A DNA stretch of 64,000 nt from assembly GCA_028716725.1 (NCBI GenBank), contig JAQUPG010000008.1:3653-67652 (forward strand), read 5' to 3'. Source of the DNA: Patescibacteria group bacterium (GTDB lineage Bacteria > Patescibacteriota > Patescibacteriia > Patescibacteriales > JAQTRU01). The notes under the pieces were generated by a model, which saw only the letters and a program-made list of their open reading frames with translations, had not been told where the DNA came from and ran no database searches. Positions 15,793 through 48,475 of this stretch are shown in pieces. Each line of letters begins with the position of its first letter. Position 1 is the stretch's first letter. The position numbers and the translations under genes are program-made.

Positions 15793-15855
15793 AACTATTT
15801 TTAGTTATACTTATTTTCCCCTTAATAGAAGACGTTCTTTAAACTTCTAATGGGG
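15756..15855. repeat. CCCCGTTAGAA-family inverted-repeat element spanning the IMPase start codon
   Basis: CCCCGTTAGAAGTTT (15756-15770) / AAACTTCTAATGGGG (15841-15855); start codon at 15792 lies inside; encodes ...TSNGVN. Confidence 0.7.
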
Positions 15856-15856
15856 C

Positions 15857-16348: not shown

Positions 16349-16352
16349 AAAT

Positions 16353-17492
16353 TTAATTGGCGAAAAAATAATAAAGTTCGTAAATTAAGCCGGCGATGAA
16401 CATAAAAGAAAGAAGAAGTATTATTGGTTTGTTTATTTTATTTTTTATTATAGACGTTTGTTCTTTTTTCTTCTTTACTTCTAAAAGGAGCCAGAGATAA
16501 AGCAGGCCGATTAGACCGCCGGTAAAAGCGCCAGCCAAACTTACTATTTTTGTTAAGTCGCGCAACCCCAATAAATAAAGGAGAAGCGGGATAAAGCAAG
16601 CCAGGGCCCAGGCAATATTTTTATTAAATTTGAAGTCCCACCAGAAAGTTTCCCGGATAGACTGGGCGATAACCAGAAAAGAAGTGACAATTGCCAGTAA
16701 TCCCAAAATTAGGGCAAAAATTATAACGCCGTCTGATAAAACCGAGCGCAGGCCGACTAAAGTGTCGGGTGAGGTGTTATTTCCGGTAATCCCAACAATA
16801 ACAAAAGTAAAGACAAGCATCATGGCCACCGGGATAAAAGTTCCCCAGGCAATCGCACTCTTAATATTTTCTCTTTTTTGGGCCAGGAGTTTACAAACTG
16901 AAGGGACAGCGGCGCTGCCGCCAACGGCAAAGAAAATCGGGCCGTAAGGCAGAAAAAAATTAGGCCAGGAGACAAGATGAAAGTTATCAAAATTGATATA
17001 GCCCCATCCGTGCCAGGCCAGTAGCCCCACCATAAAAACTAACAGTCCGGCCATAATTAATTCTACTGAAGCGATTAATTTAATTCCGGAAAAGACAACG
17101 GCGGCTTGGAATAAAAACAAAATTATAGAATAGGTAAAAACGTTTCCGCCAAAAGCCGGATTTAGCAATTCATAAAGAAAAATTCCGCCGACGATAATAT
17201 AGGCGAGTAGGGCCCCGTAGTCTCCGATCAGGCTTATTACAAGGGAAAAAATTTTTCCCCGCCGGCTAATATATTTTTCCGCATAACCGGGCAACCGGTG
17301 TTTTTCCTCGGTAGACAAGATTATTTCCGCGTAAATTTTGTGGAGGAAATATTGGACTAAACCCAAGGCAGGGAGATAGATAAAAAGCAAAATAATACCC
17401 GATTTATTAATGACAAAAGGAATAGAAAACATCCCGACCCCGATAATGGTTCCGGCTAAAGTGGCAATAGCATGAAAATAATTTTTACTCAT
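16353..17492 (-). CDS. Amino-acid permease-like transporter (about 11 TM; aromatic amino-acid permease-like)
   Basis: 379 aa polytopic protein; N-terminal AGTIIGVGMFSIP pattern; family assignment weak. Confidence 0.5.
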   Translation of the reverse strand: MSKNYFHAIATLAGTIIGVGMFSIPFVINKSGIILLFIYLPALGLVQYFLHKIYAEIILSTEEKHRLPGYAEKYISRRGKIFSLVISLIGDYGALLAYIIVGGIFLYELLNPAFGGNVFTYSIILFLFQAAVVFSGIKLIASVELIMAGLLVFMVGLLAWHGWGYINFDNFHLVSWPNFFLPYGPIFFAVGGSAAVPSVCKLLAQKRENIKSAIAWGTFIPVAMMLVFTFVIVGITGNNTSPDTLVGLRSVLSDGVIIFALILGLLAIVTSFLVIAQSIRETFWWDFKFNKNIAWALACFIPLLLYLLGLRDLTKIVSLAGAFTGGLIGLLYLWLLLEVKKKKEQTSIIKNKINKPIILLLSFMFIAGLIYELYYFFAN

Positions 17493-17508
17493 AAACTAAA
17501 GCGCATAA

Positions 17509-17528
17509 CCTGCCTGCCGGCAGGCAGG
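17509..17528. repeat. Perfect 20-nt GC-rich palindrome CCTGCCTGCCGGCAGGCAGG
   Basis: Intergenic, between two - strand genes; related copies at 13172, 41023, 41165 and 62628. Confidence 0.8.
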
Positions 17529-17564
17529 CGTGGAACGCGTAACGCGAGACAAACCATAGATGGT

Positions 17565-18644
17565 TTATTCTTCAATAATTAATTTTCCCTGTTTTATTTG
17601 TTTTTTACAAGTTTCTGGCAAATCTGACCAGGCAATTAAATCAGAAAAAAATTTTTCTTTTTCCGGTTCTGCCATTAATTCCGGCTGGCTTAGCTTTGAT
17701 TTTAGGGGATAGAGAGAAAACTTGGTTTTTTCTTCTGTTAATTCTACTCCAACTGCCAGTTCCTCCTGTGTGTCGGAAGAAAAATATTGGTCAAAAATGA
17801 AATTGCCCAGAGAATAAAAAATCGGTTTATTTTTGTAAATTTCTAAACCCTGGACGACATGGGGATGATGCCCGATTATTATGTCAGCGCCCGTGTCAAT
17901 TAAAGTATGCGCTACCTCCTGCTGGATTTTATTAAATCGATGTTCGTATTCCGTTCCCCAGTGGATGTTAACAATAACCATGTCCGTTTGTCCGGCTAAA
18001 TTTTCTATTATTTTCTTCGCGGCCGCTTCGTCAAATTTTCTATAAACCATACTGAATCCGGTCAGTCCTATTTTTTTCCCCGCGATTTCTATTATTTTTC
18101 CGCTGCAATCTCCGGTTTGGCCATCCGGGCAGCCGCTATAATAAAAACCTTGGGTTTCCAGGTTATTTCTGGTCTCAATTATACCACGCTCGCCCTGGTC
18201 GGCAAAATGGTTATTGGCCAGGTTAAAGAAATTAAAATTGTATTTTTTTAGATTAGAGATTATCTCCGGAGAAAAAGAAAAATCATAAGACATCTCCGGC
18301 TTATAGTGGGCGCCGTTATCCGTAACCGCCCCTTCTAAATTCCCGCTTATAAGGTCATGGCCAGAGAAAAAATTTTTTTCATCCAAATTTTCAAAAAGAT
18401 AGGAAAATCCTTTTTGGCTAATTTTTTCTCCGACATGGCGGTCAAGCATTAAATCCCCAAGAAAAAGTATTTTTAAAGAGGCGATTTTACCGTCTTCTTG
18501 CCCGGGAGTAAGGAGCGAATGATTATTCGGCCTTTTTATTTCCGAATAAAATGCCAATATTAAAAATAGGGCGGTTAGAAGGACTGCGGCGAGGCTCAAG
18601 GTTTTTATTAGTTTTTTGGGGCTGGTTTTAAGGGGGAAATCCAT
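17565..18644 (-). CDS. CapA/PgsA-type metallophosphatase (poly-gamma-glutamate synthesis CapA family)
   Basis: LGDLMLDR, NLANNHFADQGERG, GHHPHV motifs; N-terminal TM. Confidence 0.75.
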   Translation of the reverse strand: MDFPLKTSPKKLIKTLSLAAVLLTALFLILAFYSEIKRPNNHSLLTPGQEDGKIASLKILFLGDLMLDRHVGEKISQKGFSYLFENLDEKNFFSGHDLISGNLEGAVTDNGAHYKPEMSYDFSFSPEIISNLKKYNFNFFNLANNHFADQGERGIIETRNNLETQGFYYSGCPDGQTGDCSGKIIEIAGKKIGLTGFSMVYRKFDEAAAKKIIENLAGQTDMVIVNIHWGTEYEHRFNKIQQEVAHTLIDTGADIIIGHHPHVVQGLEIYKNKPIFYSLGNFIFDQYFSSDTQEELAVGVELTEEKTKFSLYPLKSKLSQPELMAEPEKEKFFSDLIAWSDLPETCKKQIKQGKLIIEE

Positions 18645-18715
18645 AATTTAATTATAACGCAAATAAAGAAAAAACCATATCCAGGTATGGTTTTTTCTTT
18701 ATTTATAAATTGTAT

Positions 18716-19285
18716 TTATTTCCTCATCTTAACCTCGTAGTTTATCTGTTCTATCTTCCTTAAATTTCCTTTGGCCTGGTCGTATTTAGTGCGCAGGTAG
18801 CCGGCCATGTCAAAGACTATCAATTGGTCCATAATTTCATTCAGGGTGTTTTTTGTTTTCTCCACTTCGGAAAATTTTCCGGCCGCGGCCTGGTTAATGG
18901 CGTAGCGCACCAATTCGCCGGTCGTATCGCAAATTCCTCCCAAATAGCTTTCAAAGCTTAAATTTACTTCTTTAATTTTATCGATTTTTTTGCCGCTGAT
19001 TAAAAAATAAAACATTTTTGCCTCGGCATATTCTTCCGCTCCGGCCCGGTATGCCCCCTCTTCGTTAATCCTTTTCCAGCCGAAATTTTTTTCTAATTTC
19101 TGAAAAATTTTTTCTATGGCCTCGAGATTTTCTTCCGCCTTTTTAATCTCTCCCCGGTGCAGGGAAAAAATCACCCTCTTGGAATCATGCAGAACGATAT
19201 TAGCCAGGCTGATAATTTGCCGGCGCTGGCTATTTTGTTCGTCGTGTTCTTTTTTTAACTTCTCAATGAATTTTTTGTTTATCAT
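18716..19285 (-). CDS. Translin/TRAX family protein
   Basis: SYLGGICDTTGELVRYAIN...YLRTKYDQAKGNLRKIEQINYEV parallels the TRAX DYLLGVADLTGELMR... region. Confidence 0.65.
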   Translation of the reverse strand: MINKKFIEKLKKEHDEQNSQRRQIISLANIVLHDSKRVIFSLHRGEIKKAEENLEAIEKIFQKLEKNFGWKRINEEGAYRAGAEEYAEAKMFYFLISGKKIDKIKEVNLSFESYLGGICDTTGELVRYAINQAAAGKFSEVEKTKNTLNEIMDQLIVFDMAGYLRTKYDQAKGNLRKIEQINYEVKMRK

Positions 19286-19303
19286 ACTATAGTTTATAAT
19301 TTA

Positions 19304-21010
19304 TTACTTCTCTTCGGCGACCCTGAAGACCTCCTCAACGCTGGTCGTCCCGTCCAAAGCTTTTAAGAGTCCGTCCTGGACCATAGTCACCATTCCGTTT
19401 TTAACCGCGATTTCCCGGATATCATATTCGCTTAATTGCGCAGATAAAATCAGTTTTTCTATTTCTTTATTCATAATCAGAATTTCATAAATTCCAATCC
19501 GCCCCTTATAGCCAATTTCCTGGCAGGCCGGGCAGCCGGCGCCTTTATAAAATTTCAGGTTATTAAAATCAATTTCTTTTTTATATTCATCTGATAGTTT
19601 TTCCAGAATTTCTTTTACTCTTTTTAAAGTCTCTTCGTCAATTTCCGCCGGCTGTTTGCATTTTGCGCAAAGCCGCCTGACTAAGCGCTGGCCGATTATA
19701 GCGTTAATGGCCGGGGCAAGCAGAAACGGTTTAGCGCCCATGGACAGGAATCTCGGGATGGCGCCGGCGGCATCATTGGTGTGGATAGTGGATAAAACCA
19801 GATGCCCGGTTAAGGCCGCCTGGATGGCGACTTCCGCCGTTTCCAAATCGCGGATTTCGCCGACCATAATTACGTCCGGGTCCTGGCGGACAATCGAGCG
19901 CAGGGCTTTGCCGAAAGTGTAATCTTTATTCGTTTGAGACTGGTTTATTCCTTGAAGCTGGTATTCAATCGGGTCTTCAACCGTTATAATTTTAGTTTCC
20001 GGCTTGTTTAGTTTTTTTAAAATGGCGTAAAGGGTGGTCGTTTTACCGGATCCGGTCGGCCCGGTCGTGACGATCATGCCGTTGGGCCGCTCCACTTCCT
20101 TTTTTAACTGGTTGAAAGCTTTGTCTCTTATGCCTAAATCTTCAAAAGCCAGCCCGACCGTGCTGGAACGAAGCAATCTCATAACTACGCTTTCGCCGTA
20201 GTTAGTGGGAAGGAAAGAAACTCTTATATCAATCCGTTCCTTTTTGGTATAAATGGAAATGCGGCCGTCCTGGGGCTTGTCATTGATATTTATTTTTACG
20301 CCGGCCAGGCCTTTTAAGCGGGAAATAATTTTTTGCCAAAATTGCTTGTCCAAAATGGCGATATCATGCAGCACGCCGTCAATTCTTAAACGGACTTTTA
20401 TTTCTTTCTCCTCCGCTTCTATATGCATATCCGAAGACCCTGATTTAATCGCCGCCGCCATAATGATAGTAATGGTGTCGCTGATTTGGGAGCCGTTAAT
20501 TTTTTCCTGCAAATCGCGGAAAGAGGAAAATTCTTCGCTGTATTTTTCCAACTCTTCCTCGGTTATTTTTACTCCTTTTATATGCTCGGTAACTTTCGGG
20601 ATTGTTTTATAGAGTTTTAAGGCGTAGTTTAAACTAAAGGAAGAAATTAAATAAATTTTTCCATTAGTATGGTATTTTTCGTTTATTTTTTTAAAAAGTT
20701 CTTCAACCTGGCTATTGTCCGGATCCGCCGTTCCCAGGCGGATATTCCGGCCGTCATAATGAAAACAAACCGTTTTTAAACGGCTGGCTTCCCCCTCGTC
20801 TATAAGAGCGAGGGCTTCGGGGCTGATAGGGAAGCCGTATAAATTAATATAAGGCAGGCCTAAACTCGCCGCTTCTTTTTCCGCCGCCGCTTCCGCTTCT
20901 TTCATTTTTATTTCCCCCTGTTTTTTGGAAAATTTGGCCTGGGCGCTCTCGTCTTCCTCCTTTTCTGGCGGAATGATTAAGTCTTCAATTGATTGGGTAT
21001 TTTTAGCCAT
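19304..21010 (-). CDS. GspE/PilB-type secretion/pilus assembly ATPase
   Basis: TGPTGSGKTTT Walker A, MVGEIRD, HLVLSTIHTNDA, C-terminal CxxC...CxxC. Confidence 0.9.
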   Translation of the reverse strand: MAKNTQSIEDLIIPPEKEEDESAQAKFSKKQGEIKMKEAEAAAEKEAASLGLPYINLYGFPISPEALALIDEGEASRLKTVCFHYDGRNIRLGTADPDNSQVEELFKKINEKYHTNGKIYLISSFSLNYALKLYKTIPKVTEHIKGVKITEEELEKYSEEFSSFRDLQEKINGSQISDTITIIMAAAIKSGSSDMHIEAEEKEIKVRLRIDGVLHDIAILDKQFWQKIISRLKGLAGVKININDKPQDGRISIYTKKERIDIRVSFLPTNYGESVVMRLLRSSTVGLAFEDLGIRDKAFNQLKKEVERPNGMIVTTGPTGSGKTTTLYAILKKLNKPETKIITVEDPIEYQLQGINQSQTNKDYTFGKALRSIVRQDPDVIMVGEIRDLETAEVAIQAALTGHLVLSTIHTNDAAGAIPRFLSMGAKPFLLAPAINAIIGQRLVRRLCAKCKQPAEIDEETLKRVKEILEKLSDEYKKEIDFNNLKFYKGAGCPACQEIGYKGRIGIYEILIMNKEIEKLILSAQLSEYDIREIAVKNGMVTMVQDGLLKALDGTTSVEEVFRVAEEK

Positions 21011-28737: not shown

Positions 28738-29127
28738 TCAGGCCATTAAGTCCTGAAAGCAGTTAAGCATGGCCCGGGCGACGGCCATATGGGAATTGGT
28801 CGGGTGTTCGTCGTTCCTTTTGCATCTTCGGCTGTCTCCGTTTGAGCCGATCTGAATATGGGCATGAGCCTTGCACCCGCCCCTATAAGGCAGGTTTGCC
28901 CCGCAGGCAAGAAGCGTTATTTCCTGGTCACTGCCCAGATCGGGGGCGCAAGAAACAACCATTTCTTTTATCGCCCTAAATATGGCGTGGTGGATATTTT
29001 CCTGCCCCTGGCTGGCGCAAGAAATTTTTTCTTCACCCCTTGGGGTAGCGAAAACGAGAGTAGCGGTCGGAATCATTCCCGTCCCGTCAGATACCTGAAC
29101 GGTTTTTATGGCGAGATCAGCAATCAT
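28738..29127 (-). CDS. Stand-alone LeuA-dimer (allosteric R-region)-like domain protein
   Basis: 129 aa; two beta-alpha-beta-like halves (VSDGTG..ATLVFA..ASQGQENIHHAIFRAI / HAHIQIG..NSHMAVARAMLNCF) resembling the C-terminus of LeuA/CimA; assignment by eye. Confidence 0.4.
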   Translation of the reverse strand: MIADLAIKTVQVSDGTGMIPTATLVFATPRGEEKISCASQGQENIHHAIFRAIKEMVVSCAPDLGSDQEITLLACGANLPYRGGCKAHAHIQIGSNGDSRRCKRNDEHPTNSHMAVARAMLNCFQDLMA

Positions 29128-29142
29128 TTCTTTTCTCCCTGT

Positions 29143-29274
29143 TTAGAGATCCATTATGCCGACGAAAATCATTTCTTCCCCGTTCCACCAAAACAATTTT
29201 TCTGCAGAACTGGGGTTTGTTGGCGGTTCGTTTCCCTGACCATCCGTTTCCGGTTTTTCCGTGTCTTCTTCCAT
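29143..29274 (-). CDS. Hypothetical acidic 43-aa protein
   Basis: GAGGAGG SD; MEEDTEKPETDGQGNEPPTNPSSAEKLFWWNGEEMIFVGIMDL; stop 15 nt before the next start. Confidence 0.35.
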   Translation of the reverse strand: MEEDTEKPETDGQGNEPPTNPSSAEKLFWWNGEEMIFVGIMDL

Positions 29275-29501
29275 TTGGCGCCTCCTCGGTTATGAATAGT
29301 TGTGCGGTTGCATATTTAAAAAAGAACAATCAAAAAAACCACCCCATTCGGGTGGCTTTTCCTATGTTTATAAAATAATCTGGTTATAGTTTATTTATAC
29401 GAAAGCAAGCCACCCGAGAGGGAAGTAAGAGTAACAATCCTAACAGCAAGTTTTTTTGAATAGCTTGTTTCATATTATTAAGACTAGTATAACATACTTA
29501 G

Positions 29502-29545
29502 AAAAAAAAGCAACCCCCTTACAAAATGAATTTTATAAGGGGGTT
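29502..29545 (-). terminator. Intrinsic terminator of the cimA-like gene
   Basis: AACCCCCTTA(29512-29521)/TAAGGGGGTT(29536-29545); T8 on the - strand. Confidence 0.7.
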
Positions 29546-29551
29546 TTATAG

Positions 29552-31114
29552 TTATTGTTTTTCCTCCTTTTCTTTTTCTTTGACGATCCGATAGCAGTAA
29601 GCGTCCCAAAGAGCTTCCCAGGCCGCTTCTAGAAAATCGGCGTTAACTCCCATAACCGTCCAGGATTCCTTTTCATCCGTGAAAGTGGCGATGACCCTAA
29701 CTTTGGCGGCGGTATCAAGTTCAAAATTGAATATCTCCGGCCGAAAGTCAGCCAGCCTTACTTCTTCTAGGAAAGGGAAATAAGGAAGTAAAGCGCGGCG
29801 CAGAGCCTGGTTTAAACCGTCAACTCCGCCTGCCCCTTCAGCATTAACCAATATTTTTTCCTCAGCAACAGTTATGGTTAAGCTGGCTTCGCTTTGAATT
29901 GCCTGCCGGCCGATTTTTTCATCCCACGTTCTCCATTTTTTGAACTTAGGAAGAGGAGGAAGCTCTCCTAATTTTCCCAGCAGCCAAAGGTAAAAAGAAG
30001 CTCGGGCTTGTCCTAAATCTTTACCCTCGTCACAGAGCTGGTTAAATTCGTCCATAAATTTTTTGGCTAGCCCTCTGGCAATAGTAAGGCCGAATTCTTT
30101 CGCTACAGTAACCAAATTAGATGCTCCGGAACCCTCGGCCAGTTCGGTTCTTTCCTTATTTCCGACAAATTTTGGAGGAGCGTGAAAATAACTGCCAGGG
30201 TCTTTTTCATGGCCATCAGTATGCATGCCGGCTTTAGTGGCAAAAGCATTTTCTCCTACCCAAGGTTCAAACGGGTTTGGCTTTATGTTTAAAGCGCGGC
30301 AAACCAGGACATAAATCGAGCAAAGGTTTTGTAAAGAATTGAGAGGAAAATTATTTAACCCTTGTTCTTCCCAGACCAGATCAGGAAGGAACGTAGTTAT
30401 GGGTGCGTTGCCGACTCTTTCGCCGATGGTGCCGATGGTTCCCTGAATGTGGTTTATGCCAAGTTCCCAGGCTAGTTCAGAGAGGGCCGAAGCTCTTCTT
30501 CGGTCATCGTGGAAATGAACGCCGAGCCGGTCCAGAGGAATAATTTTCGAGACCTCAGTAATTACTTGAGTTACTTCCAGGAAATTTATTCCGCCGTTAG
30601 TATCGCAGAGGACAATCCAGGTTGCTCCGGCTTCGGTCGCTGCCAAAAGAACCTTCTCGGCATAATCTCTATCGCCGTTTAGCCAAGCATCAAAAGCATG
30701 TTCAGCATCAAAGATTACTTCCAAGCCGGCTTCAACCAAAGTTCTTATTGAATCTCTGATAGTTTGGAGATAATCATCCGGGTTTTGCTTTAGTGATTTT
30801 TCTACATCCCGGCGACGTGTTTTGCCGACTAACACTCCGACCGGAACCCCGAGTTTTATGATGTTTTTTACATCTTCCGGATGAGTTCGGCCAAAAGCAG
30901 CAATTTTGGCTTTTAACCCAAGCTTTAGCGCTTCCTGGATAAGTCGACGACTGGCTCTGCGGGAATTGGCAAAACCAAGTTCAAGGTAGCTAACCCCTAA
31001 TTCGGAAATGGCAGTAGCAGCTTTTAAGACATCTTTGATGTTGGTTATTTTTGCCCATATTCTTTGGGCGCCATCCCGAAAAGTCGTGTCTAAAACCACT
31101 AAATTTTTTTTCAT
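29552..31114 (-). CDS. cimA: Citramalate synthase / 2-isopropylmalate synthase family (DRE-TIM metallolyase + LeuA-dimer C-terminus)
   Basis: LDTTFRDGAQ, GVHFHDD (HxH), C-terminal regulatory domain; the cimA symbol is suggested by the Ile-rich leader and is not proven. Confidence 0.8.
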   Translation of the reverse strand: MKKNLVVLDTTFRDGAQRIWAKITNIKDVLKAATAISELGVSYLELGFANSRRASRRLIQEALKLGLKAKIAAFGRTHPEDVKNIIKLGVPVGVLVGKTRRRDVEKSLKQNPDDYLQTIRDSIRTLVEAGLEVIFDAEHAFDAWLNGDRDYAEKVLLAATEAGATWIVLCDTNGGINFLEVTQVITEVSKIIPLDRLGVHFHDDRRRASALSELAWELGINHIQGTIGTIGERVGNAPITTFLPDLVWEEQGLNNFPLNSLQNLCSIYVLVCRALNIKPNPFEPWVGENAFATKAGMHTDGHEKDPGSYFHAPPKFVGNKERTELAEGSGASNLVTVAKEFGLTIARGLAKKFMDEFNQLCDEGKDLGQARASFYLWLLGKLGELPPLPKFKKWRTWDEKIGRQAIQSEASLTITVAEEKILVNAEGAGGVDGLNQALRRALLPYFPFLEEVRLADFRPEIFNFELDTAAKVRVIATFTDEKESWTVMGVNADFLEAAWEALWDAYCYRIVKEKEKEEKQ

Positions 31115-31172
31115 CTTTTTCCTCCGTCAGTGATTGTGTTTATTTTTGAATGAACGTTTTTTCAGGAATAAA

Positions 31173-31370
31173 CAAAAAATCGCCTGGCTTTGAAGACGAT
31201 TTTTTACAGTTTTTTATTTTAATATTTTGTTTATTCTGATTTTGTCTTCAAAGCACAATAAAATTGATTATCAATAATGATAATCCCGATAATGCCAATA
31301 ATAATTATTGTGCTTTGCGCTAAATTCATATGATTATTCTTATCTTATACGATTGTTTTTAATTTGTCAA
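31173..31370 (-). promoter_or_regulatory. Leader-peptide transcription attenuator (promoter, Ile-rich leader ORF, 1:2 / 2:3 / 3:4 alternative helices, terminator)
   Basis: TTGACA(31370-31365)-N17-TAAGAT(31347-31342); seg1 31317-31305, seg2 31261-31244, seg3 31197-31187, terminator hairpin 31200-31179 + U-run. Confidence 0.6.
31231..31329 (-). CDS. 32-aa leader peptide with 10 Ile codons
   Basis: MNLAQSTIIIIGIIGIIIIDNQFYCALKTKSE; ATG about 6 nt from the predicted TSS (near-leaderless). Confidence 0.55.
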   Translation of the reverse strand: MNLAQSTIIIIGIIGIIIIDNQFYCALKTKSE

Positions 31371-31522
31371 ATGCTTTCTAAAATTAGGTAAATTCGGCCC
31401 TTTCACCAATTTGCCAAAAGCCAATAAATAATATAGAATAAAGATATATTTGGTTATTTTTTACTAGCGTAAAAAAGCCGCAACTACGAATGCGGCACAT
31501 GCGAATTATTAAATAAAAATAT

Positions 31523-32743
31523 ATGGCAAAAGTCATAACTGATAGAAGTAAAATTAGAGAAGTTTTGGAGAGGGGAGTGGAAAATATTTATCCGGATAAA
31601 GAATCTTTGGAAAAAGTTTTATCATCAGGAAAAAGGATAAAGCTTTATTGCGGTTTTGATCCAAGCGCCCCATCCCTGCACATCGGCAATGCCATCCAGC
31701 TAAATAAATTAGCCCAGTTTCAGGCTTTAGGGCACGAAGTTATTTTTTTAATTGGGGATTTTACCGGCATGATTGGCGACCCGACCGATAAAGCGGCGGC
31801 CCGGAAAAAAATGACTAGAAAAGAAGTTTTGGCTAATGCCAAAAATTACAAAAAGCAAGCCAGCGCTTATTTAAGTTTTTCCGGCAGGAACAAAGCGAAA
31901 ATAATGTATAACAGCAAATGGAACGATAAATTAAATTTTGCTGGTTTAATTGATTTGGCTTCTAATTTTACAGTCCAGCAAATGATTGCCAGGGATATGT
32001 TTCAGGACCGCTTAAAAGAAGACAAGCCGATTTATCTCCATGAATTTCTCTATCCTTTGGCCCAGGGCTATGACAGCGTGGCCATGGACGTTGATTTGGA
32101 AATCGGAGGCAATGACCAGATGTTTAATATGCTTTGCGGCAGGGATTTGATGAAAGCCATAAAGGGGAAAGAAAAATTTGTTTTAACTACGAAACTATTG
32201 GTTGATCCGACCGGAAAGAAAATGGGCAAGACCGAGGGCAATATTGTAAACCTGGACGAGAATCCTCAGGACATGTACGGAAAAATTATGTCCTGGCCGG
32301 ACGGAGTGATTATCCCGGGTTTTGAACTTTGTACAAAGATACCGATGGCCGAGGTGGAAAAAATAAAAAGAGAACTGGAGAACGGGAAAACAAATCCCAG
32401 AGATTTTAAAATGAAATTGGCTTATGAGATAACGAAAATGAATTGGGGAGAAAAAAAAGCCGAGGAAGCGCAGGATTATTTTGTTAAGACGATACAGAAG
32501 AAAGAAGCACCGGATGAAGTTAAAAGTAAAAAGTTAAAAGTAAAAAGTATGAATATAGTCGATTTGTTAGTGGAGGTAGAATTGGCGAGTAGTAAAAGTG
32601 AAGCTCGGCGTTTAATAGAACAAGGCGGGATAAAAGTTGGCGAGCAAGTTATTAGTGATATTGGCAAAAAAATTGAGGTAACAAAAAATGGTGTTTTAAT
32701 TCAGAGAGGAAAGAGGCAATTTATTAAAGTAATTGGGGAATAA
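31523..32743 (+). CDS. tyrS: Tyrosyl-tRNA synthetase
   Basis: HIGN and KMGKT class I motifs; C-terminal S4-like domain. Confidence 0.95.
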   Translation: MAKVITDRSKIREVLERGVENIYPDKESLEKVLSSGKRIKLYCGFDPSAPSLHIGNAIQLNKLAQFQALGHEVIFLIGDFTGMIGDPTDKAAARKKMTRKEVLANAKNYKKQASAYLSFSGRNKAKIMYNSKWNDKLNFAGLIDLASNFTVQQMIARDMFQDRLKEDKPIYLHEFLYPLAQGYDSVAMDVDLEIGGNDQMFNMLCGRDLMKAIKGKEKFVLTTKLLVDPTGKKMGKTEGNIVNLDENPQDMYGKIMSWPDGVIIPGFELCTKIPMAEVEKIKRELENGKTNPRDFKMKLAYEITKMNWGEKKAEEAQDYFVKTIQKKEAPDEVKSKKLKVKSMNIVDLLVEVELASSKSEARRLIEQGGIKVGEQVISDIGKKIEVTKNGVLIQRGKRQFIKVIGE

Positions 32744-32910
32744 TTAATGCTTCGCTAGGATTTACTTTTGTGACTCTGCTATTTTCCTTGTCATCCCGGC
32801 CCGCGAGCCGGGATCCAGAATTAAACGGCAGGAATGTCTAGCATAATTTTACTGGTTTAATAGTCTGTGCGGCTTTCTTCTGGATTCCCGCTTTCGCGGG
32901 AATGACGGGG
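32744..32910. repeat. Composite repeat: 5' GCTTCGCTAGGA..TACTTTTG module plus two GC-rich hairpins in inverted orientation
   Basis: TTAATGCTTCGCTAGGATTTACTTTTG matches the 5' ends of the 36585 and 37689 copies; GTCATCCCGGCCCGCGAGCCGGGATCCAGAA (32790-32820) and TTCTGGATTCCCGCTTTCGCGGGAATGAC (32878-32906). Confidence 0.6.
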
Positions 32911-32930
32911 GATGTATTAGTAAGAAGATT

Positions 32931-34658
32931 ATGTATACGTTGGAAAAAATAAAAGAACATATTGCAGAGAAAATTAATAAGGCGCTGGGAGAAGAAATTA
33001 TTAAGGCGTCCTCTTTAGTTTATCCGCCCAGTCTGGAAATGGGAGATTTAAGCTTGCCCTGCTTTCAGCTAATCGGAGCGACGAAAAAATCTCCGGCCGA
33101 GTCGGCTGATTTTTTAATCAATAAGATTTCGGCTGATGATATAATTACTAATTTAAAAGCGATTGGGCCGTATTTAAATTTTACGATTAACAAGGAATAT
33201 TTAACCGAGGAAGTGATGAAAGAAATATCAAAGGAAAAGGAAGAATATGGAAAAAACAAAACGGGCAAGGGCGAGAAGGTAATGATAGAATATTCTAATG
33301 CCAATACGCACAAAGAGTATCACATCGGCCATTTGCGAAATATCTGCTATGGGGAAGCGGTAAAAAGGATTTTGGCAGCCAGCGGCTATAAAGTTATACC
33401 GGTTTCCTATATCAATGATTTCGGCATTCATGTCGCCAAGACTTTGTGGAATTATGACGATTTTATAAAAGAAAAAAGCTTAAAAGAAAAAATCGAAAAA
33501 ATGCCGGAGGAAGAAAAAGGCTATCTTTTAGGCGAAATGTACGTGGCGGCCTGCCGGCGGGAAGAAAAAGATAAGACTGCCAAAACCATGATAAGTTTTT
33601 TTATGAAAAAACTGGAAAGCCGGCAGGGAGCCGAATATAAGCTTTGGCAGAAAACTAGGGAGTGGAGCATAAAATATTTCGCCAAAATTTATGAGGAGTT
33701 GGGCGTTTGTTTTAAAGATATTTTTTACGAAAGCCAGTATATTGATAAGGGAATAAAAATGGTGAAACGTCTCCGGGCCGAAGGGATTTTAAAAGAAAGC
33801 GAAGGGGCCGTAATTGCCGATTTGGAAAAATTGGGCGTGCTTTTATTCTTGCGCTCGGACGGAACCGCGCTTTATCCGGTGGCGGACGTTCCTTTGGCCA
33901 TTGATAAATTTAAAAAATATAAAATAGATAAATCAATTTACGTCGTGGACATAAGACAGAGCCTGTACTTTAAGCAGCTCTTCGCGGTTTTAGAAAAAAT
34001 GGGGTATAAGCAAAAATTAATTCATTTAGGCTACGAGTTTGTCAATCTGCCTTCGGGAATGATGTCTTCCCGGACCGGGAATGTTATCACTTACCGGGGT
34101 TTAAAAGAGGAGATGCTATCTAAAGCCGCGGGAGAAACGAAAAAAAGGCATAAAGACTGGCCGCAAGATAGAGCGGAAGAAGTGGCAGAAAAGATTACTT
34201 TAGGCGCCATGAAATTTGAAATGATAAAGGTTAGTGCTAGTAGCGTTATCACTTTTGACATAAACAAAGCTTTGCAATTTGACGGTTACACCGCGGCTTA
34301 TCTACAATATACTTATGCCAGGATAAACAGCATTTTCCGCAAATCGCAAATCGCAAATCGCAAATCGCAAAATTTCAAGTCTGAAGAATTAGTTGAGGAT
34401 AAGGAAAATAATTTGATATTGAAATTGGCAAAATACCCGGAAGTGGTGGAAAAAGCCGGGGAGAGTTATGATCCGGCGGAAATTGCCAAATATTTATTTG
34501 AGTTGGCCCAGGATTTTAATGATTATTACCATAGCGTACCGGTTTTAAAAGCTGACGATGATGTCAGAAGCGCAAGACTGGCGATGCTTTCGGCTATTAG
34601 CCAAGTGCTCGCAAATGGATTAGAATTATTAGGGATAGAAGCATTAGAAGAAATGTAA
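32931..34658 (+). CDS. argS: Arginyl-tRNA synthetase
   Basis: SNANTHKEYHIGHLRN (HIGH), MSSRTG (KMSKS-like), DALR anticodon-binding end. Confidence 0.95.
   Translation: MYTLEKIKEHIAEKINKALGEEIIKASSLVYPPSLEMGDLSLPCFQLIGATKKSPAESADFLINKISADDIITNLKAIGPYLNFTINKEYLTEEVMKEISKEKEEYGKNKTGKGEKVMIEYSNANTHKEYHIGHLRNICYGEAVKRILAASGYKVIPVSYINDFGIHVAKTLWNYDDFIKEKSLKEKIEKMPEEEKGYLLGEMYVAACRREEKDKTAKTMISFFMKKLESRQGAEYKLWQKTREWSIKYFAKIYEELGVCFKDIFYESQYIDKGIKMVKRLRAEGILKESEGAVIADLEKLGVLLFLRSDGTALYPVADVPLAIDKFKKYKIDKSIYVVDIRQSLYFKQLFAVLEKMGYKQKLIHLGYEFVNLPSGMMSSRTGNVITYRGLKEEMLSKAAGETKKRHKDWPQDRAEEVAEKITLGAMKFEMIKVSASSVITFDINKALQFDGYTAAYLQYTYARINSIFRKSQIANRKSQNFKSEELVEDKENNLILKLAKYPEVVEKAGESYDPAEIAKYLFELAQDFNDYYHSVPVLKADDDVRSARLAMLSAISQVLANGLELLGIEALEEM
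34338..34372 (+). repeat. Tandem heptamer (CGCAAAT x4 plus a partial unit) inside the argS CDS
   Basis: Read directly; translated as RKSQIANRKSQN. Confidence 0.85.
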
Positions 34659-34836
34659 TGTTCAAGACGTTCGTCTATTTTTAAACCTTTTTGTGAACCA
34701 TTAATGCGAATACTTTAGTGATTTTGATAAATTATCAGAGGAATGCGAATGCTACAAATAAATACGAATTATTTATTGTAAAAGAACGGCAACGCTGGAG
34801 AACGTGCCGTTTGGGTAGCCATATTTATAGATTGTT

Positions 34837-35091
34837 TTAACGGGTTATATGCCCGTGTCCCTTTAGGGCTTCAAAAAAAGAGCGGTGAAATACGATACGC
34901 GGAGGGTTTGGTAGGGGCGTAATTAGTGTGTGGTGATCGAACAAGGGTGATTTGGATGATGCTGGGGTATTTCTTTCTCTCGGTGTATGGGAAGATGCGC
35001 TCGGGAGAGGTGGGATCAGTATGTAGTGATTAAATAAGGGCGATCTGGTTGAGCCAGGTCCCGCGGGTGTCCACTTATTAGGATTATTCAT
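34837..35091 (-). CDS. Hypothetical Pro-rich 84-aa protein with an internal tandem repeat (coding status uncertain)
   Basis: GAGGAGGAG SD; repeats SPLFNHYILIPPLP / SPLFDHHTLITPLP; region is GC-richer and G-rich on the + strand. Confidence 0.3.
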   Translation of the reverse strand: MNNPNKWTPAGPGSTRSPLFNHYILIPPLPSASSHTPRERNTPASSKSPLFDHHTLITPLPNPPRIVFHRSFFEALKGHGHITR

Positions 35092-35173
35092 TTTCTCCTC
35101 CTCGTTTTTTCTGGTTTATGCTTACATAATAAAATACATTGATTATTAAGTCAATTATCGATAAAATAATAAT

Positions 35174-36499
35174 ATGGTAGAAGAAAAGAATAATTTAATG
35201 GATAAAATTGAGTCTTTATGCAAAAGGCGGGGTTTTGTTTTTCCTGATTCGGAAATTTACGGGGGTATGGCTAATACCTGGGATTACGGGCCTTATGGCG
35301 CGGGAATGAGGAAAAACATAAAAGACCGGTGGTGGAAAAAATTTGTCCAGGACCGGGACGATATGGTCGGTTTGGACGCGGCCTTGATTATGAATCCGAA
35401 GGTCTGGGAGGCTAGCGGGCATCTGGCTAATTTTAAAGACCCGATGGTGGAGTGCGAGAAATGTCATGGCCGGTTTCGGGAAGATGATTTAGAAAATAAC
35501 CCTTCGGCTGGGGTCGGGGCAGGAAAATGCCCGGATTGCGAAGGGAAGCTGACGGCTCCGAAGCAGTTTAATATGATGTTTAAGACTTTTTTCGGCCCGG
35601 CCGAAGAAAGCGCCAATGTCGCTTATTTCCGGCCGGAAACCGCCCAAGGGATTTTTGTTAATTTTAAAAATATTATTGACACGACCAGGAAGAAACTTCC
35701 TTTTGGCATCGGCCAAATCGGCAAAGCTTTCCGCAATGAAATTACGCCGGGCAATTTTATTTTCCGAACCCGCGAGTTTGAGCAGATGGAAATAGAATAT
35801 TTTATTCCCGTCCCGAAAAAGGACAAGGACTGGGAAAAGTATTTCGAGGACTGGCGGAAAGAAATGATCGGCTGGATAAAAGACTTGGGCATTGACGTAA
35901 AAAAAGAAATCCACGAACTAAACGTGCCTAAAGATGAGCTCGCGCATTATTCTAAAAAAACCATTGATTTTGAATATAAGTTCCCTTTTGGCCAGAAAGA
36001 ATTATATGGTTTGGCTTACCGGACTGATTTTGATTTAAAAAGCCACGGTTTAGATTATACTGACGAAGATGGCAATAAATTTATTCCGCATGTGATTGAA
36101 CCGTCTTTAGGAGTTGACCGGAGTTTTTTGGCAGCTTTGTGCTCGGCTTATACGGAAGAAAAAGTGAAAGATGAAATGCGGGCGGTATTAAAGTTGCCGG
36201 TTTGGCTCTCTCCGGTTAAGATTGCGGTTTTTCCCTTGCTTAAAAATAAGCCGGAGTTGGTAAAAAAAGCCAAAGAGATTTTTAATGGTTTAAAAACAGA
36301 TTATGTTTGCGAGTTTGATGATAACGGCAACGTAGGCAAGCGATACAGGCGGCAGGATGAAATCGGCACGCCTTATTGCCTTACCGTAGATTTTGACAGT
36401 CTGGAAAAAGATGACGTGACCGTGCGCGACCGCGACAGTATGAAGCAGGTGAGGGTAAAAATAAAAGAGTTGGGAGATTATTTTAAGTATAAGCTGTAA
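35174..36499 (+). CDS. glyQS: Glycyl-tRNA synthetase, alpha2 dimeric type
   Basis: Class II motifs (FRPETAQG, GKAFRNEI, GVDR), Zn-ribbon insertion, C-terminal anticodon-binding domain. Confidence 0.95.
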   Translation: MVEEKNNLMDKIESLCKRRGFVFPDSEIYGGMANTWDYGPYGAGMRKNIKDRWWKKFVQDRDDMVGLDAALIMNPKVWEASGHLANFKDPMVECEKCHGRFREDDLENNPSAGVGAGKCPDCEGKLTAPKQFNMMFKTFFGPAEESANVAYFRPETAQGIFVNFKNIIDTTRKKLPFGIGQIGKAFRNEITPGNFIFRTREFEQMEIEYFIPVPKKDKDWEKYFEDWRKEMIGWIKDLGIDVKKEIHELNVPKDELAHYSKKTIDFEYKFPFGQKELYGLAYRTDFDLKSHGLDYTDEDGNKFIPHVIEPSLGVDRSFLAALCSAYTEEKVKDEMRAVLKLPVWLSPVKIAVFPLLKNKPELVKKAKEIFNGLKTDYVCEFDDNGNVGKRYRRQDEIGTPYCLTVDFDSLEKDDVTVRDRDSMKQVRVKIKELGDYFKYKL

Positions 36500-41264: not shown

Positions 41265-41363
41265 CTTTATCGGTGCGCTTGGATGGACTTGAACCATCGA
41301 CCCCCGCTTTATAAGAGCGGTGCTCTAACCAACTGAGCTACAAGCGCAAAATAATTTAACGGG
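41247..41363. repeat. CCCCGTTAAATT / AATTTAACGGGG inverted repeats bracketing the tRNA-Ile gene
   Basis: Perfect 12-nt arms at 41247-41258 and 41352-41363. Confidence 0.65.
41273..41346 (-). tRNA. tRNA-Ile (anticodon UAU)
   Basis: Acceptor GCGCTTG/CAAGCGC, D GCTC/GAGC, anticodon stem CCGCT/AGCGG with loop CTTATAA, T stem GATGG/CCATC with TTCAAGT. Confidence 0.85.
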
Positions 41364-43462: not shown

Positions 43463-43561
43463 CCCCGTTAGAAATTCTATCGGTTAAAGGGTAAAGAAAT
43501 TTTTAACAGGGGAAAAGATTTACAAATATGAAGAAAGAAAACAAAAAGATTTCTAACGGGG
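43463..43561. repeat. CCCCGTTAGAAAT-family element containing the valS start codon
   Basis: CCCCGTTAGAAAT (43463-43475) / ATTTCTAACGGGG (43549-43561); the ATG at 43528 lies inside; encodes MKKENKKISNG. Confidence 0.75.
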
Positions 43562-46212
43562 TGAACAAAGATTTGCCAAAAGCGTACAATCCGCAGGATT
43601 ATGAGGATAAAATTTACGGGGAATGGGAAAAGTCAGGGTATTTCAACCCTGATATTTGTGTTCGCAAAGGAATCTGTGAGAAGAATGCCAAGCCATTTAC
43701 CATAATCTTTCCTCCGCCAAATATTACGGATAAGCTGCATTTAGGCCATGGTTCTAATTTAGCGATTGAAGATTTGCTGACACGTTATCACCGGATGAAA
43801 GGTTATCGGACTTTGTGGTTGCCCGGGACTGATCATGCGGCCATTGCTACGCAGAATGTAGTGGAGCGGAAAATCTTAAAAGAAGAGGGTAAGACGCGGC
43901 ATGATTTAGGTAGGGCCAAATTTTTAAAAAAAGTTTGGGATTTTGCAAAAGTTACGCAGGTGACAATCTTAAAGCAGTCTAGGAAAATGGGCGCCTCGCT
44001 GGATTGGTCAAGGCAGGCCTTTACCTTAGACGAGCCGAGAAAGAAAGCGGTGAGAAAAATGTTTGTTGAGATGTATAAAGAGGGAATAATTTACCGCGGG
44101 GAAAGAATCGTTAATTGGTGCCCGCGTTGCCATTCCACTTTAGCTGATGATGAAGTTAATTATAAGGAGCAAAAAGCGAAATTATATACTTTTAAATATA
44201 GCCGGGATTTTCCTTTTGCCATTGCCACCACCCGGCCGGAAACTAAATTAGGTGATACGGCCGTAGCGGTTAACCCGAAAGACAAGCGTTACAAAAAATA
44301 CATCGGGAAAATTTTTGCCATAGATTTTGTGGGTGTGCCTTTAAAATTAAAAATTATTGCGGATAGAAACGTTGATATGAAATTCGGGACCGGCGCTGTC
44401 GGCGTTACCCCGGCTCATTCCATGGTTGACTGGCAAATGGCCGAAGCCAATAGACTGCCAATCGTAAAAGTAATTAATGAGGAAGGGAAAATAAAAAATA
44501 ATTTTGGCAAATATTCAGGCAAAGGCGTTTTGGCCGCCAGAGAAATAATCGCGGAAGAATTAAAAAAACAAAAGTTATTGGAAAAGGAAGAAGAAATGGA
44601 TAATAATTTATCTATCTGCTACCGTTGCGGCACACCGATTGAACCTTTGCCGTCAAAGCAATGGTTCGTGTCCGTGGATAAAAAATTAAAGCGATTAGGC
44701 GATAAGTCGTTAAAGGAAAAAGCCATAGAAGTGGCTAAAACCGGAAAAATAAAATTTATCCCCGAAAGGTTTACGAAAAAATATTTAGACTGGATGGAAA
44801 ATTTACATGACTGGTGTATCAGCCGACAGATTTGGTTTGGGCATGAAATACCGGTTTGGTATAAGGATAAAGAAATTTATGTGGGCGAAGAAATCCCGAA
44901 AGGCAAAGGTTGGGTTCAGGATGAGGATACTTTAGATACCTGGTTTTCTTCTGGCATGTGGACTTTTTCAACTTTAGGCTGGCCTGATGATTTTAAAAAT
45001 AGAAAAAAGTCTGGCGATTTAACAAATTATCATCCCACCCAGGTTTTGGAAACCGGTTATGAAATTTTAACCCTTTGGGTTTCCCGAATGATAATGATGT
45101 CGGAGTTTGCTTTAGAGGAAATTCCTTTTGAGAAGGTATATTTACATGGCATGGTTTTAGACAAGCAGGGCAAAAAAATGAGCAAATCAAAGGGCAATGG
45201 AATTGACCCGATTGATGTTATAAATAAATACGGTACGGATGCGGTCCGTTTGTCTTTACTAATCGGAAATACGCCGGGTAATGACACCAGGGTTTTTGAA
45301 GAAAAAATCGCCGGGTTTAGGAATTTTACGAATAAACTTTGGAATATTTCCCGTTATATAATTACGAATTACGAATTGTCAATTACGAATTTAAAAATTG
45401 ATTATAAGAATTGTACTTTGGCCGATAACTGGATCTTGGAAGAGCTGGATGAGGTTAGATTTTTAGTGGATAAAAAAATAAATAGCTATGAATTTTCCGC
45501 GGCCGGAGAAATATTAAGAGATTTTACCTGGGATAAGTTTGCTGACTGGTATCTGGAGATTGCCAAAATTGAAGGCGATAAATCAAATATTCTGATTTAT
45601 GTTTTAAAGAATTTATTAATATTATGGCATCCATTCATGCCTTTTGTGACAGAAGCAATTTGGCAGGAAATGGGAAATTCGGAATTTTTAATGGTTGAAA
45701 AATGGTCTAAGGTAGGATCATCTATATCCGTAGGAGTTGATGTAAGAGATGGGGGAGGTGTATTAAGAAAGGACGAAATGAATTTGATAAAAGATATTAT
45801 TATTTCTATCCGCAACGCCCGGGCGGAAAATAAAGTTGAACCGGGCAAAAAAGTGAAAGCCATAATTTACGCTGGTCGTCTAAAAAATCTGGTTGAGTCG
45901 CAAGTGGATTTAATTAAAGGATTGCGGACTGGTATTAGCGAATTGGAAATTAAAGAAAATGGCCCGAAGATTAAAAATGAAATTTATTTAACCGTGGCCG
46001 GGGTGGAAATTTATTTAATCGGGGCAATCGACAGGGAAAAAGAAAAAGAAAGAATTAAAAAAGAAATAGCTAATCTCAAAAAAATGATTTCCCTGACCGA
46101 GAAGAAATTAGAGAATAAAGAGTTTACGGCTAAGGCGCCGGCTGAGATAGTTAAAAAGGAAGAGGAGAAATTAAAATCCTGGCAAGAAGCGCTCGAAAAA
46201 TTAAAAAAGTAA
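43528..46212 (+). CDS. valS: Valyl-tRNA synthetase
   Basis: PPPNITDKLHLGH (HIGH), KMSKSKGN, C-terminal coiled coil. Confidence 0.97.
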   Translation: MKKENKKISNGVNKDLPKAYNPQDYEDKIYGEWEKSGYFNPDICVRKGICEKNAKPFTIIFPPPNITDKLHLGHGSNLAIEDLLTRYHRMKGYRTLWLPGTDHAAIATQNVVERKILKEEGKTRHDLGRAKFLKKVWDFAKVTQVTILKQSRKMGASLDWSRQAFTLDEPRKKAVRKMFVEMYKEGIIYRGERIVNWCPRCHSTLADDEVNYKEQKAKLYTFKYSRDFPFAIATTRPETKLGDTAVAVNPKDKRYKKYIGKIFAIDFVGVPLKLKIIADRNVDMKFGTGAVGVTPAHSMVDWQMAEANRLPIVKVINEEGKIKNNFGKYSGKGVLAAREIIAEELKKQKLLEKEEEMDNNLSICYRCGTPIEPLPSKQWFVSVDKKLKRLGDKSLKEKAIEVAKTGKIKFIPERFTKKYLDWMENLHDWCISRQIWFGHEIPVWYKDKEIYVGEEIPKGKGWVQDEDTLDTWFSSGMWTFSTLGWPDDFKNRKKSGDLTNYHPTQVLETGYEILTLWVSRMIMMSEFALEEIPFEKVYLHGMVLDKQGKKMSKSKGNGIDPIDVINKYGTDAVRLSLLIGNTPGNDTRVFEEKIAGFRNFTNKLWNISRYIITNYELSITNLKIDYKNCTLADNWILEELDEVRFLVDKKINSYEFSAAGEILRDFTWDKFADWYLEIAKIEGDKSNILIYVLKNLLILWHPFMPFVTEAIWQEMGNSEFLMVEKWSKVGSSISVGVDVRDGGGVLRKDEMNLIKDIIISIRNARAENKVEPGKKVKAIIYAGRLKNLVESQVDLIKGLRTGISELEIKENGPKIKNEIYLTVAGVEIYLIGAIDREKEKERIKKEIANLKKMISLTEKKLENKEFTAKAPAEIVKKEEEKLKSWQEALEKLKK

Positions 46213-46216
46213 AATC

Positions 46217-46510: not shown

Positions 46511-46544
46511 AAGAGATGAATTAAAATGGTAAAGTTTTAATATC

Positions 46545-46964: not shown

Positions 46965-46966
46965 AT

Positions 46967-47992: not shown

Positions 47993-48071
47993 GTTTAGTT
48001 AATCAGTTAGATAGTTGAATAGTTAAATAGTTTAATTGTTCGTCTGGGAAATTTAATTTACAACCAATGGT

Positions 48072-48449: not shown

Positions 48450-48475
48450 CTGTTTAACTAAGAAACTATTTAACT

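Follow-up and report, generated by a model that had tools for sequence, protein, structure and literature searches.

How a bacterium from a group usually described as lacking amino-acid biosynthesis would control an amino-acid biosynthetic gene is the question raised by a 64,000-nucleotide stretch of contig JAQUPG010000008.1 (assembly GCA_028716725.1, positions 3,653 to 67,652; hereafter the window), assigned to a Patescibacteria group bacterium. On the minus strand of the window, a short open reading frame (ORF) crowded with isoleucine codons lies between a promoter-like sequence and a gene for a citramalate-synthase-like (CimA-like) enzyme, an arrangement that an original prediction, made from the sequence alone, took to be a classical leader-peptide attenuator. 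We put the probability at roughly 0.8 that the region is a ribosome-mediated transcription attenuator that senses the supply of isoleucyl-tRNA and controls the citramalate-synthase-like gene. This reading draws on sequence anatomy, statistics, conservation, covariation and masked-footprint folding, from which we infer the transcription start, leader translation, stalling, termination and the substrate of the enzyme.

The promoter, the 32-codon ORF, the three pairing segments and the terminator hairpin of the original prediction were all recovered when the minus strand was read directly (Table 1). The leader promoter, with 10/12 matches, is the top promoter-like site on the minus strand in a scan of 29000-33000, and its -10 hexamer ends 12 nt before the leader ATG, so that the 5' untranslated region of the leader would be only ~5 nt long and the message leaderless or nearly so. 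On the plus strand, promoter-like sites at 31264-31305 are weak (9/12) and no commoner than in shuffles. The reported density of 10 Ile codons in 12 also stands, as the single maximum over all six frames of the 64 kb; the runner-up among unrelated 12-codon windows holds 8 Ile, and in 50 block shuffles the maximum per 12-codon window was 5-7 and never more than 7, against a background in which Ile makes up 8.3% of the codons in the window's genes. No Shine-Dalgarno (SD) sequence precedes the leader ORF. Because an SD-like motif is found at only 10 of the 45 gene starts in the window, and because several genes (for example those starting at 18644 (-), 35174 (+) and 36813 (+)) carry a TATAAT-like box whose end lies 6 nt upstream of the ATG, SD-independent and probably leaderless initiation seems normal in this organism, a pattern that suggests that leaderless mRNAs are widespread in it. 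Elsewhere in the window, a tRNA-Ile with the anticodon UAU lies at 41272-41347 (minus strand), adjoining a tRNA-Val(GAC); among the leader's Ile codons the first is AUA, the codon read by a UAU anticodon, which is an uncommon bacterial way of reading it.

The leader RNA can adopt two alternative sets of helices. Segment 1 (CAAAGCACAATAA) and TTATTGTGCTTTG (31261-31249) form the 13 Watson-Crick pairs of helix 1:2, whereas GCTTTGAAGAC (31254-31244) and GTCTTCAAAGC (31197-31187) form the 11 pairs of the antiterminator, 2:3. The sequence GCUUUG of segment 2 is common to both pairings, and the antiterminator shares GUCU and the loop with the terminator (3:4), so that antiterminator and terminator are mutually exclusive, as originally proposed. 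The terminator hairpin (31200-31179) consists of 7 pairs, one of them U.G, and TTTTTGTTT comes directly behind it; a terminator scan reports it as 31207-31172, and an upstream A-tract is able to lengthen its stem. Helix energies are -14.4 kcal/mol for 1:2, -13.5 for 2:3 and -6.8 for 3:4. As a whole, the 176-nt leader RNA folds to -39.7 kcal/mol as compared to -23.2 +/- 3.9 for dinucleotide shuffles (z = -4.26, with 1 of 200 shuffles folding as well), and its minimum free energy (MFE) structure holds the 1:2 helix and the terminator. An inner hairpin in the 1:2 loop, possibly a pause or nucleation hairpin, shows no compensatory changes and one U-A to U.G change in the alignment of relatives. 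The end of the U-tract lies ~45 nt from the SD sequence of the regulated gene and 56 nt from its ATG.

Table 1. Positions of the proposed Ile and Leu attenuators and of associated features in the window.
Feature	Coordinates	Strand	Basis
Leader promoter, -35 hexamer TTGACA	31365..31370	-	sequence reading and promoter scan
Leader promoter, -10 hexamer TAAGAT, spacer 17 nt	31342..31347	-	sequence reading and promoter scan
Leader ORF, 32 codons and stop, MNLAQSTIIIIGIIGIIIIDNQFYCALKTKSE	31231..31329	-	translation; no SD
Regulatory codons 8-19: 10 Ile (1 ATA, 7 ATT, 2 ATC) and 2 interrupting Gly codons	31273..31308	-	codon reading
Segment 1, CAAAGCACAATAA, codons 5-9, 5' strand of helix 1:2 (anti-antiterminator)	31305..31317	-	pairing, compensatory changes
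Inner 8-bp hairpin GAUUAUCA-UUAU-UGAUAAUC in the 1:2 loop (Ile codons 16-19 and codons 20-22)	31266..31285	-	MFE and RNAalifold consensus
Segment 2	31244..31261	-	31261-31249 pairs with segment 1, 31254-31244 with segment 3
Segment 3, the 3' part of the terminator's 5' arm and loop; 3' strand of the antiterminator	31187..31197	-	pairing
Intrinsic terminator (3:4), AUCGUCU/AGGCGAU (31200-31194 with 31185-31179), 8-nt loop, U-tract UUUUUGUUU (31178-31170)	31170..31200	-	terminator scan, MFE, RNAalifold
Spacer from U-tract to SD, strongly conserved (CTTTGAAAAATGTTCATTTAAAAATAAAAC.ACAACCATCA)	31126..31169	-	alignment of relatives
Regulated gene: SD GGAGG (31125-31121), ATG at 31114, 520-aa HMGL-like/HCS_D2/LeuA_dimer protein	29552..31125	-	hidden Markov model (HMM) search
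Terminator of the cimA-like gene, 15-bp stem and U-tract	29512..29545	-	terminator scan
Companion Leu attenuator, 1.7 kb downstream of the Ile leader	29332..29513	-	scans, folding, relatives
Leu leader ORF, 29 codons, MKQAIQKNLLLGLLLLLPSRVACFRINKL	29473-29384	-	SD-less ATG 12 nt after the -10 hexamer
Genes behind the Leu attenuator: 43-aa ORF (29274-29143) and 129-aa ORF (29127-28738)	28738..29274	-	ORFs, predicted fold

The same device is found in related genomes, here metagenome and metagenome-assembled genome (MAG) contigs of Patescibacteria with cimA-like proteins 68-78% identical. Conserved Ile-rich mini-ORFs, which the original prediction had suggested looking for upstream of homologous genes, are present in 8 further loci, where the ORF, the Ile codons and all three helices are kept. 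The whole device occurs on every contig that reaches far enough upstream (L082/L084/L103, L083, L104, L105-L108, L109/L110 and L111) and partial copies of its 3' portion on shorter ones (L081, L112-L116), while the contigs of P0007, P0009, P0011 and P0012 reach only the terminator or segment 2. The relatives' leader peptides read MNLIQGTIVIIGIIGIIIIDNHFYCALKAKLE, MNLAQGTIIIIGIIGIIIIGNRFYCALKAKLE, MSLIQSIIIIIAIIGIIIIGNRSYYALKAKLK, MNLMQSAIIIITIIGIIIIDNRFYRALKAKLE and MNFIQSITIIIGIIAIIIIDNQFRYALKI. In an alignment of 15 rows (A2), 9 of them full-length, TTGACAA is invariant in all nine full-length sequences, and the -10 hexamer, which is TAAGAT, TAAAAT or TAAGCT, lies constantly 12 nt from the ATG. 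Frame, start and stop of the leader are kept, its length being 32 codons in eight of the nine and 29 codons in L111. Codons 10, 11, 13, 14 and 16-19 specify Ile in all nine, with exchanges between ATT and ATC at codons 11, 13 and 14, and positions 12 (G/A/T) and 15 (G/A) inside the Ile run vary. Where the amino acid changes radically, at codon 7 (T/I/A) and at codon 25 (C/Y/R), the substitutions are precisely the compensatory changes of the RNA. Because Ile is retained through synonymous changes, and because the radical replacements coincide with RNA covariation, selection appears to act on the Ile codons, the reading frame and the RNA pairing rather than on the peptide sequence, a pattern that speaks against two alternatives, a peptide or toxin with a function of its own and a riboswitch-like element that is not translated.

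The alignment also bears on each helix. In helix 1:2, 3 of the 13 pairs carry double compensatory changes (AU to GC, CG to UA and UA to CG), and the combined 1:2 and 3:4 structure has 98.2% of alignment cells paired, as compared to 37-53% in registers shifted by 1-3 columns. For the antiterminator the share of paired cells is 99.2% over 11 sequences, with AU, GU or GC at one pair, and for the terminator it is 99% over 15 sequences. Within the terminator loop, the stretch complementary to segment 2 has a sole change, A to G, which keeps 2:3 through a U.G pair. RNAalifold, applied to seven sequences, independently predicts helix 1:2, the inner hairpin and the terminator. In L109 (about 2771-2940) and L110 (about 1794-1963), an insertion of ~170 nt occupies precisely the point at which the attenuator terminator gives way to the conserved spacer; its ends are inverted repeats of ~18 bp (GGGACTGTCTCCGAATGC...GCATTCGGTGACAGTCCC), and it resembles a miniature inverted-repeat transposable element.

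In the proposed switch between these states, the position of a translating ribosome would decide which helix forms, and the original prediction held that a ribosome stalled on the Ile run would favor the antiterminator. In masked folding, with the transcript ended at the 3' end of the terminator stem and the U-tract taken as still in the hybrid, a ribosome footprint with its A-site at codons 7-13 leaves 11 of 11 pairs of 2:3 and none of the 7 pairs of 3:4, whereas an A-site at codons 25-33 gives all 7 pairs of 3:4; over these two ranges, the position of the mask switches the RNA between 2:3 and 3:4 as predicted. Masked folding of the full leader including the U-tract always gave the terminator and was dismissed, since pairing of the A-tract with the U-tract is not the state at the decision point. 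It had also been proposed that a ribosome at the stop codon masks segment 2 and so releases the terminator; the terminator does form, but the ribosome covers only a few 3' nucleotides of segment 2, and termination comes mainly through 1:2, which re-forms under a mask at the stop codon.

These results suggest the following course of events. Transcription would start ~5 nt before the leader ATG, and the leader ORF would be read as a leaderless or near-leaderless message. When Ile is scarce, the first ribosome would stall in the 10-Ile run (codons 8-19) and cover segment 1, segments 2 and 3 would pair as an 11-14 bp antiterminator once segment 3 is made, and with the 3:4 hairpin blocked RNA polymerase would read into the gene. 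When Ile is plentiful, the ribosome would run through segment 2 to the stop codon, or leave, such that segment 2 would be covered or the 13-bp helix 1:2 would re-form; free segment 3 would then make the 3:4 hairpin before the U-tract, and transcription would end ~45 nt before the SD.

A second attenuator, whose leader is rich in Leu, adjoins the terminator of the cimA-like gene itself (29545-29512) on its downstream side; it is a new observation of this analysis. Its promoter reads TTGCTT-N16-TGnTATACT, with an extended -10 and a weak -35, TTGCTT, supplied by the tail of the preceding terminator. The leader holds 8 Leu in 9 codons, the Leu maximum over the six frames of the 64 kb; its 1:2 helix takes in the start codon (folding z = -4.2), its antiterminator consists of 10 bp between CGGGUGGCUU (29416-29407) and AAGCCACCCG (29358-29349), and its terminator spans 29362-29332. 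The Leu attenuator is kept in 11 loci of relatives, with many synonymous changes of Leu codons. In L083 and L104-L107, the gene behind it encodes a protein of 505 aa that exceeds the cutoffs for LeuA (NF002086, 734 bits against 532; TIGR00973, 667 against 599). With an Ile leader before the CimA-like enzyme and a Leu leader before LeuA, the amino acid of the leader tracks the enzyme that would be controlled, and this pairing appears to be the strongest contextual support both for the attenuator reading and for the CimA assignment.

The genes behind the Leu attenuator differ in the window itself, where, as in L103, L109 and L112, leuA is replaced by a 43-62-aa ORF and a 129-aa ORF. The 43-aa ORF carries a WWNG motif. 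For the 129-aa protein there was no Pfam match, and BLASTP of the ORF against LeuA and against the cimA-like protein returned nothing; a LeuA HMM gives a faint match (E = 0.0017). A single-sequence AlphaFold model of this protein (predicted local distance difference test score, 80.8) shows a beta-beta-beta-alpha unit twice, and its matches are confined to regulatory domains, those of Leptospira citramalate synthase and Mycobacterium tuberculosis LeuA, which make up the top 11 PDB matches (E 2.5e-5 to 1.2e-4, TM 0.54-0.67). The protein is thus predicted, from the model, to be a stand-alone protein resembling the allosteric domain of LeuA and CimA. In the genome of the window, the Leu attenuator may have been rewired from leuA to a free-standing LeuA-type allosteric domain, which might act in trans as an amino-acid sensor.

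What the Ile attenuator would control is a 520-aa protein composed of an HMGL-like barrel, HCS_D2 and a C-terminal LeuA_dimer domain (PF00682, PF22617 and PF08502), and identical (100%) to a protein of a 'Patescibacteria group bacterium' MAG, a host of the candidate phyla radiation (CPR), as the original prediction had considered conditionally. The original prediction preferred CimA to LeuA for this enzyme. That preference is borne out in so far as TIGR00977 (citramalate synthase) is its best NCBIfam model at 329 bits, ~156 above the best LeuA or 2-isopropylmalate synthase model at 173 bits, and a Leu leader precedes the true leuA in relatives, but not to the extent of a formal assignment. By sequence, solved structures place the protein only in the homocitrate/isopropylmalate/citramalate synthase superfamily, the closest being homocitrate and isopropylmalate synthases; 'CimA-like' is accordingly used here, and the CimA call is tentative. 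The gene is a solitary one, flanked by purL on one side and by a run of aminoacyl-tRNA synthetase genes on the other. It has one of the window's few strong SD sequences, and a promoter scan of 29000-33000 reported no promoter-like site between the terminator and the SD; together these fit a gene that is read from a long leader. Minus-strand genes at 14351-21010, considered as an ilv/leu operon, were rejected, as they are pilB-like, HAD, transporter, phosphatase and similar genes.

Several observations weigh against a ribosome-mediated attenuator acting on citramalate synthase. The leader ORF has no SD, an objection that appears to be mitigated by the scarcity of SD sequences across the window and by the -10 boxes 6 nt before ATG codons. 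With 7 bp and -6.8 kcal/mol, the core of the terminator stem is short and weak, and both 2:3 and 3:4 show one-sided changes only, with no double changes; moreover, the sequences are closely related, and the covariation amounts to few evolutionary events. A simple mask at codons 14-19 still permits helix 1:2, and for this part of the Ile run the argument is steric only, namely that 1:2 would be blocked because a 70S ribosome cannot fit in the 43-nt hairpin loop. At ribosome-free equilibrium, the truncated transcript slightly favors an extended antiterminator (-30.9 against -28.9 kcal/mol), and termination therefore rests on co-transcriptional folding order, with 1:2 forming first, as in trp. 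A conserved block also separates the terminator from the SD, and it may represent a weak internal promoter or some further regulatory element. On the side of the target, the TIGR00977 score falls below the 450-bit cutoff, and no other ilv or leu gene for branched-chain amino acids (BCAA) lies within the 64-kb window. Finally, the homologue of locus L001 (49% identity) has no leader, a tRNA-like sequence (read by eye) taking its place upstream.

A first alternative takes the mini-ORF to encode a functional small hydrophobic peptide, a membrane peptide or one of a type I toxin kind, that has a promoter and a terminator to itself; the gene downstream would then be read from a separate weak promoter, and the pairings would be incidental. 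The ~30-aa peptide combines a hydrophobic core with a charged C-terminus, as is common among small membrane toxins, and it has a strong promoter and a terminator of its own; the conserved block before the SD, in addition, contains TTGAAA-like and TAAAAC-like hexamers. Yet the hydrophobic run spans only ~13-16 residues, the candidate internal -10 has no T at position 6, and no site there passes the scan. The original prediction had itself named a stable membrane peptide or toxin as the alternative to its reading, and here the substitutions at codons 7 and 25 track the RNA pairing, keeping it intact while altering the peptide radically, just as the loop portion facing segment 2 changes by a single pairing-preserving A to G. 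The neighboring Leu-rich leader repeats the architecture in front of leuA in relatives, and unrelated Ile-run ORFs lie upstream of distant homologues, such that the peptide explanation is highly improbable. A switch that is real but read by a protein or a small ligand, in the manner of a riboswitch, T-box or TRAP/PyrR system, with the Ile codons as a by-product of A+U-rich helices, would account for the conserved, covarying terminator and antiterminator alternatives and for the missing SD. It leaves unexplained why the Ile run is a six-frame extreme, why most of it (codons 10-15) lies in the unpaired 1:2 loop and stays Ile while third positions change, why ATG, frame and stop are conserved, and why the Leu twin keeps 8 Leu through many synonymous swaps; with no Rfam match at E <= 10 beyond terminator-like noise, and no specifier loop or T-box architecture, only the slimmest of chances is left to this account.

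A third alternative accepts the attenuator and questions its output. The enzyme may be LeuA-like, homocitrate-synthase-like or an orphan in a reduced genome, with the Ile run gauging general translation or BCAA supply. In keeping with this, the TIGR00977 score (329 against 450) and the closest solved structures give no clean citramalate synthase, the 64 kb contain no leuBCD or ilv, and the gene is alone among aminoacyl-tRNA synthetase genes, as its homologues in L117 and on the P0028 contig also stand alone. On the other hand, citramalate synthase is by far the best family (329 against at most 173 bits for LeuA models), the pathway-gene negative covers the 64-kb window only, and the neighboring paralogue in relatives is a canonical LeuA with a Leu leader, so that the leaders discriminate the two enzymes. 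We regard an output other than Ile biosynthesis as unlikely, and an attenuator that couples Ile supply to a CimA-like enzyme as the preferred reading.

As an Ile-sensing attenuator, the locus can be set beside well-known systems. The leaders of the ilvGMEDA (ilvL, 32 codons) and thr operons of Escherichia coli and Salmonella are multivalent (Ile, Val and Leu; Thr and Ile), depend on an SD and control whole operons. The present element shares with them a short leader (also of 32 codons) rich in the regulatory amino acid, the 1:2, 2:3 and 3:4 helices, an intrinsic terminator, a biosynthetic gene downstream and, as proposed here, an outcome decided by ribosome position. It differs in having an Ile-only, SD-less and probably leaderless leader before a single citramalate-synthase-like gene, and it has no sequence or Rfam similarity to them. 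In the E. coli trp leader, two Trp codons lie inside segment 1 and the stop codon lies between segments 1 and 2. The four-segment logic is alike, with 1:2 and 2:3 of similar stability and the outcome set by folding order and ribosome position, whereas here the run, of 12 codons, begins at the end of segment 1 and continues into the 1:2 loop, with the stop 11 nt beyond segment 2. The Leu twin of the same neighborhood has in common with the Ile leader the -10 hexamer 12 nt before an SD-less ATG, the three helices and a target of the same enzyme superfamily; it differs in its Leu codons, its 29-codon ORF of unrelated sequence and its target, which is leuA in relatives and a regulatory-domain-like protein in the window.

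A closer precedent for the leaderless design is found in Corynebacterium glutamicum. The ilvBNC attenuator of this species has a leaderless leader peptide, IlvL, which lacks a ribosome-binding site and whose start codon all but coincides with the transcription start (PMC11857589, citing Morbach et al. 2000), and leader peptides have been described upstream of leuA, trpE, ilvB and aroF (PMC3890552). The SD-less leader, the three-hairpin logic of anti-antiterminator, antiterminator and terminator, and the BCAA pathway are shared with the Ile attenuator, whereas C. glutamicum belongs to the Actinomycetota, its peptide is a 15-aa mixture of Ile, Val and Leu, its target is acetohydroxyacid synthase and there is no sequence relation. 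A search of Rfam over 29000-33000 at E <= 10 returned no family for the Ile leader, only STnc240 and STnc350 at E > 4 over the terminator, and the terminator of the Leu leader scored 28.7 bits against Phe_leader, whose gathering score is 55. As read here, the attenuator works like the Rfam leader families (Thr_leader, Leu_leader, His_leader, Trp_leader, Phe_leader, T-box) and is a member of none.

Beyond the close relatives, all fetched loci were scanned for Ile-, Leu- or Val-rich upstream ORFs. Upstream of a homologue 31% identical (L096), an unrelated Ile-run ORF, MTRTSRIISIIGIIISPLRGG..., is accompanied by a terminator-like hairpin (about 2265-2420), and upstream of one 44% identical (L117), MNSNSRNSKQIIIIINPLLKGRLFD is followed by a hairpin and U-tract (5816-5950). 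An Ile-rich ORF upstream of the L030 homologue was dropped, there being no terminator-like site, and the same ORF scan found nothing comparable upstream of ~80 alphaproteobacterial homologues. Locus L001 was the only Patescibacteria locus from a protein-profile scan of genome contigs that was otherwise swamped by Alphaproteobacteria. In the literature searched, no report was found of a leader peptide or attenuator before cimA, nor of attenuation in Patescibacteria/CPR, nor anything relevant on isopropylmalate in these bacteria, which is not proof of novelty.

The mechanism itself is textbook and nothing new in principle; what is of note is the host, the probable leaderless design and the pair of Ile and Leu leaders that annotates two paralogues. 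The Ile device itself is compact, at 170 nt. For annotation, the leaders provide a sequence-only argument for separating CimA-like (Ile leader) from LeuA (Leu leader) in uncultivated bacteria. For physiology, they indicate that some Patescibacteria may regulate amino-acid genes by tRNA charging, which would need coupled transcription and translation on probably leaderless messages. A wider proposition, that a clade of Patescibacteria runs its committed Ile and Leu steps under paired, leaderless, single-amino-acid attenuators and that this is the first ribosome-mediated attenuation in the CPR, is doubtful, if worth entertaining. Were it true, transcription and translation would be tightly coupled from the very 5' end of the message, and these reduced genomes would retain some BCAA synthesis at the least, perhaps in the form of an incomplete pathway that is shared with a host.

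The surroundings of the locus hold some further features. Between the divergent tyrS start and the leader promoter, a G+C-rich hairpin with a T-tract (GCCGCATTCGTAGTTGCGGCTTTTTT; 31477-31496, minus strand) may shield the leader promoter from antisense transcription; it is missing in the relatives examined, as compared by eye. A repetitive stretch of the GTGTTTT/GTGCTTT type (for example CTTGTGTTTTTGTGTTTTCGCGCTTTCTGTGTTC) is found repeatedly between genes, upstream of the leader promoter in L083 and L105-L109 and at 2700-2770 in L001, where it lies between tRNA-like sequences read by eye. Aminoacyl-tRNA synthetase genes are concentrated around the locus on the plus strand (31523-36499 and 43528-50899) and include tyrS, argS, a class II HGTP-type gene, a valS-like gene, pheS and pheT, the last two separated by a gene for a 23S rRNA-intervening-sequence protein (48072-48449, plus strand).

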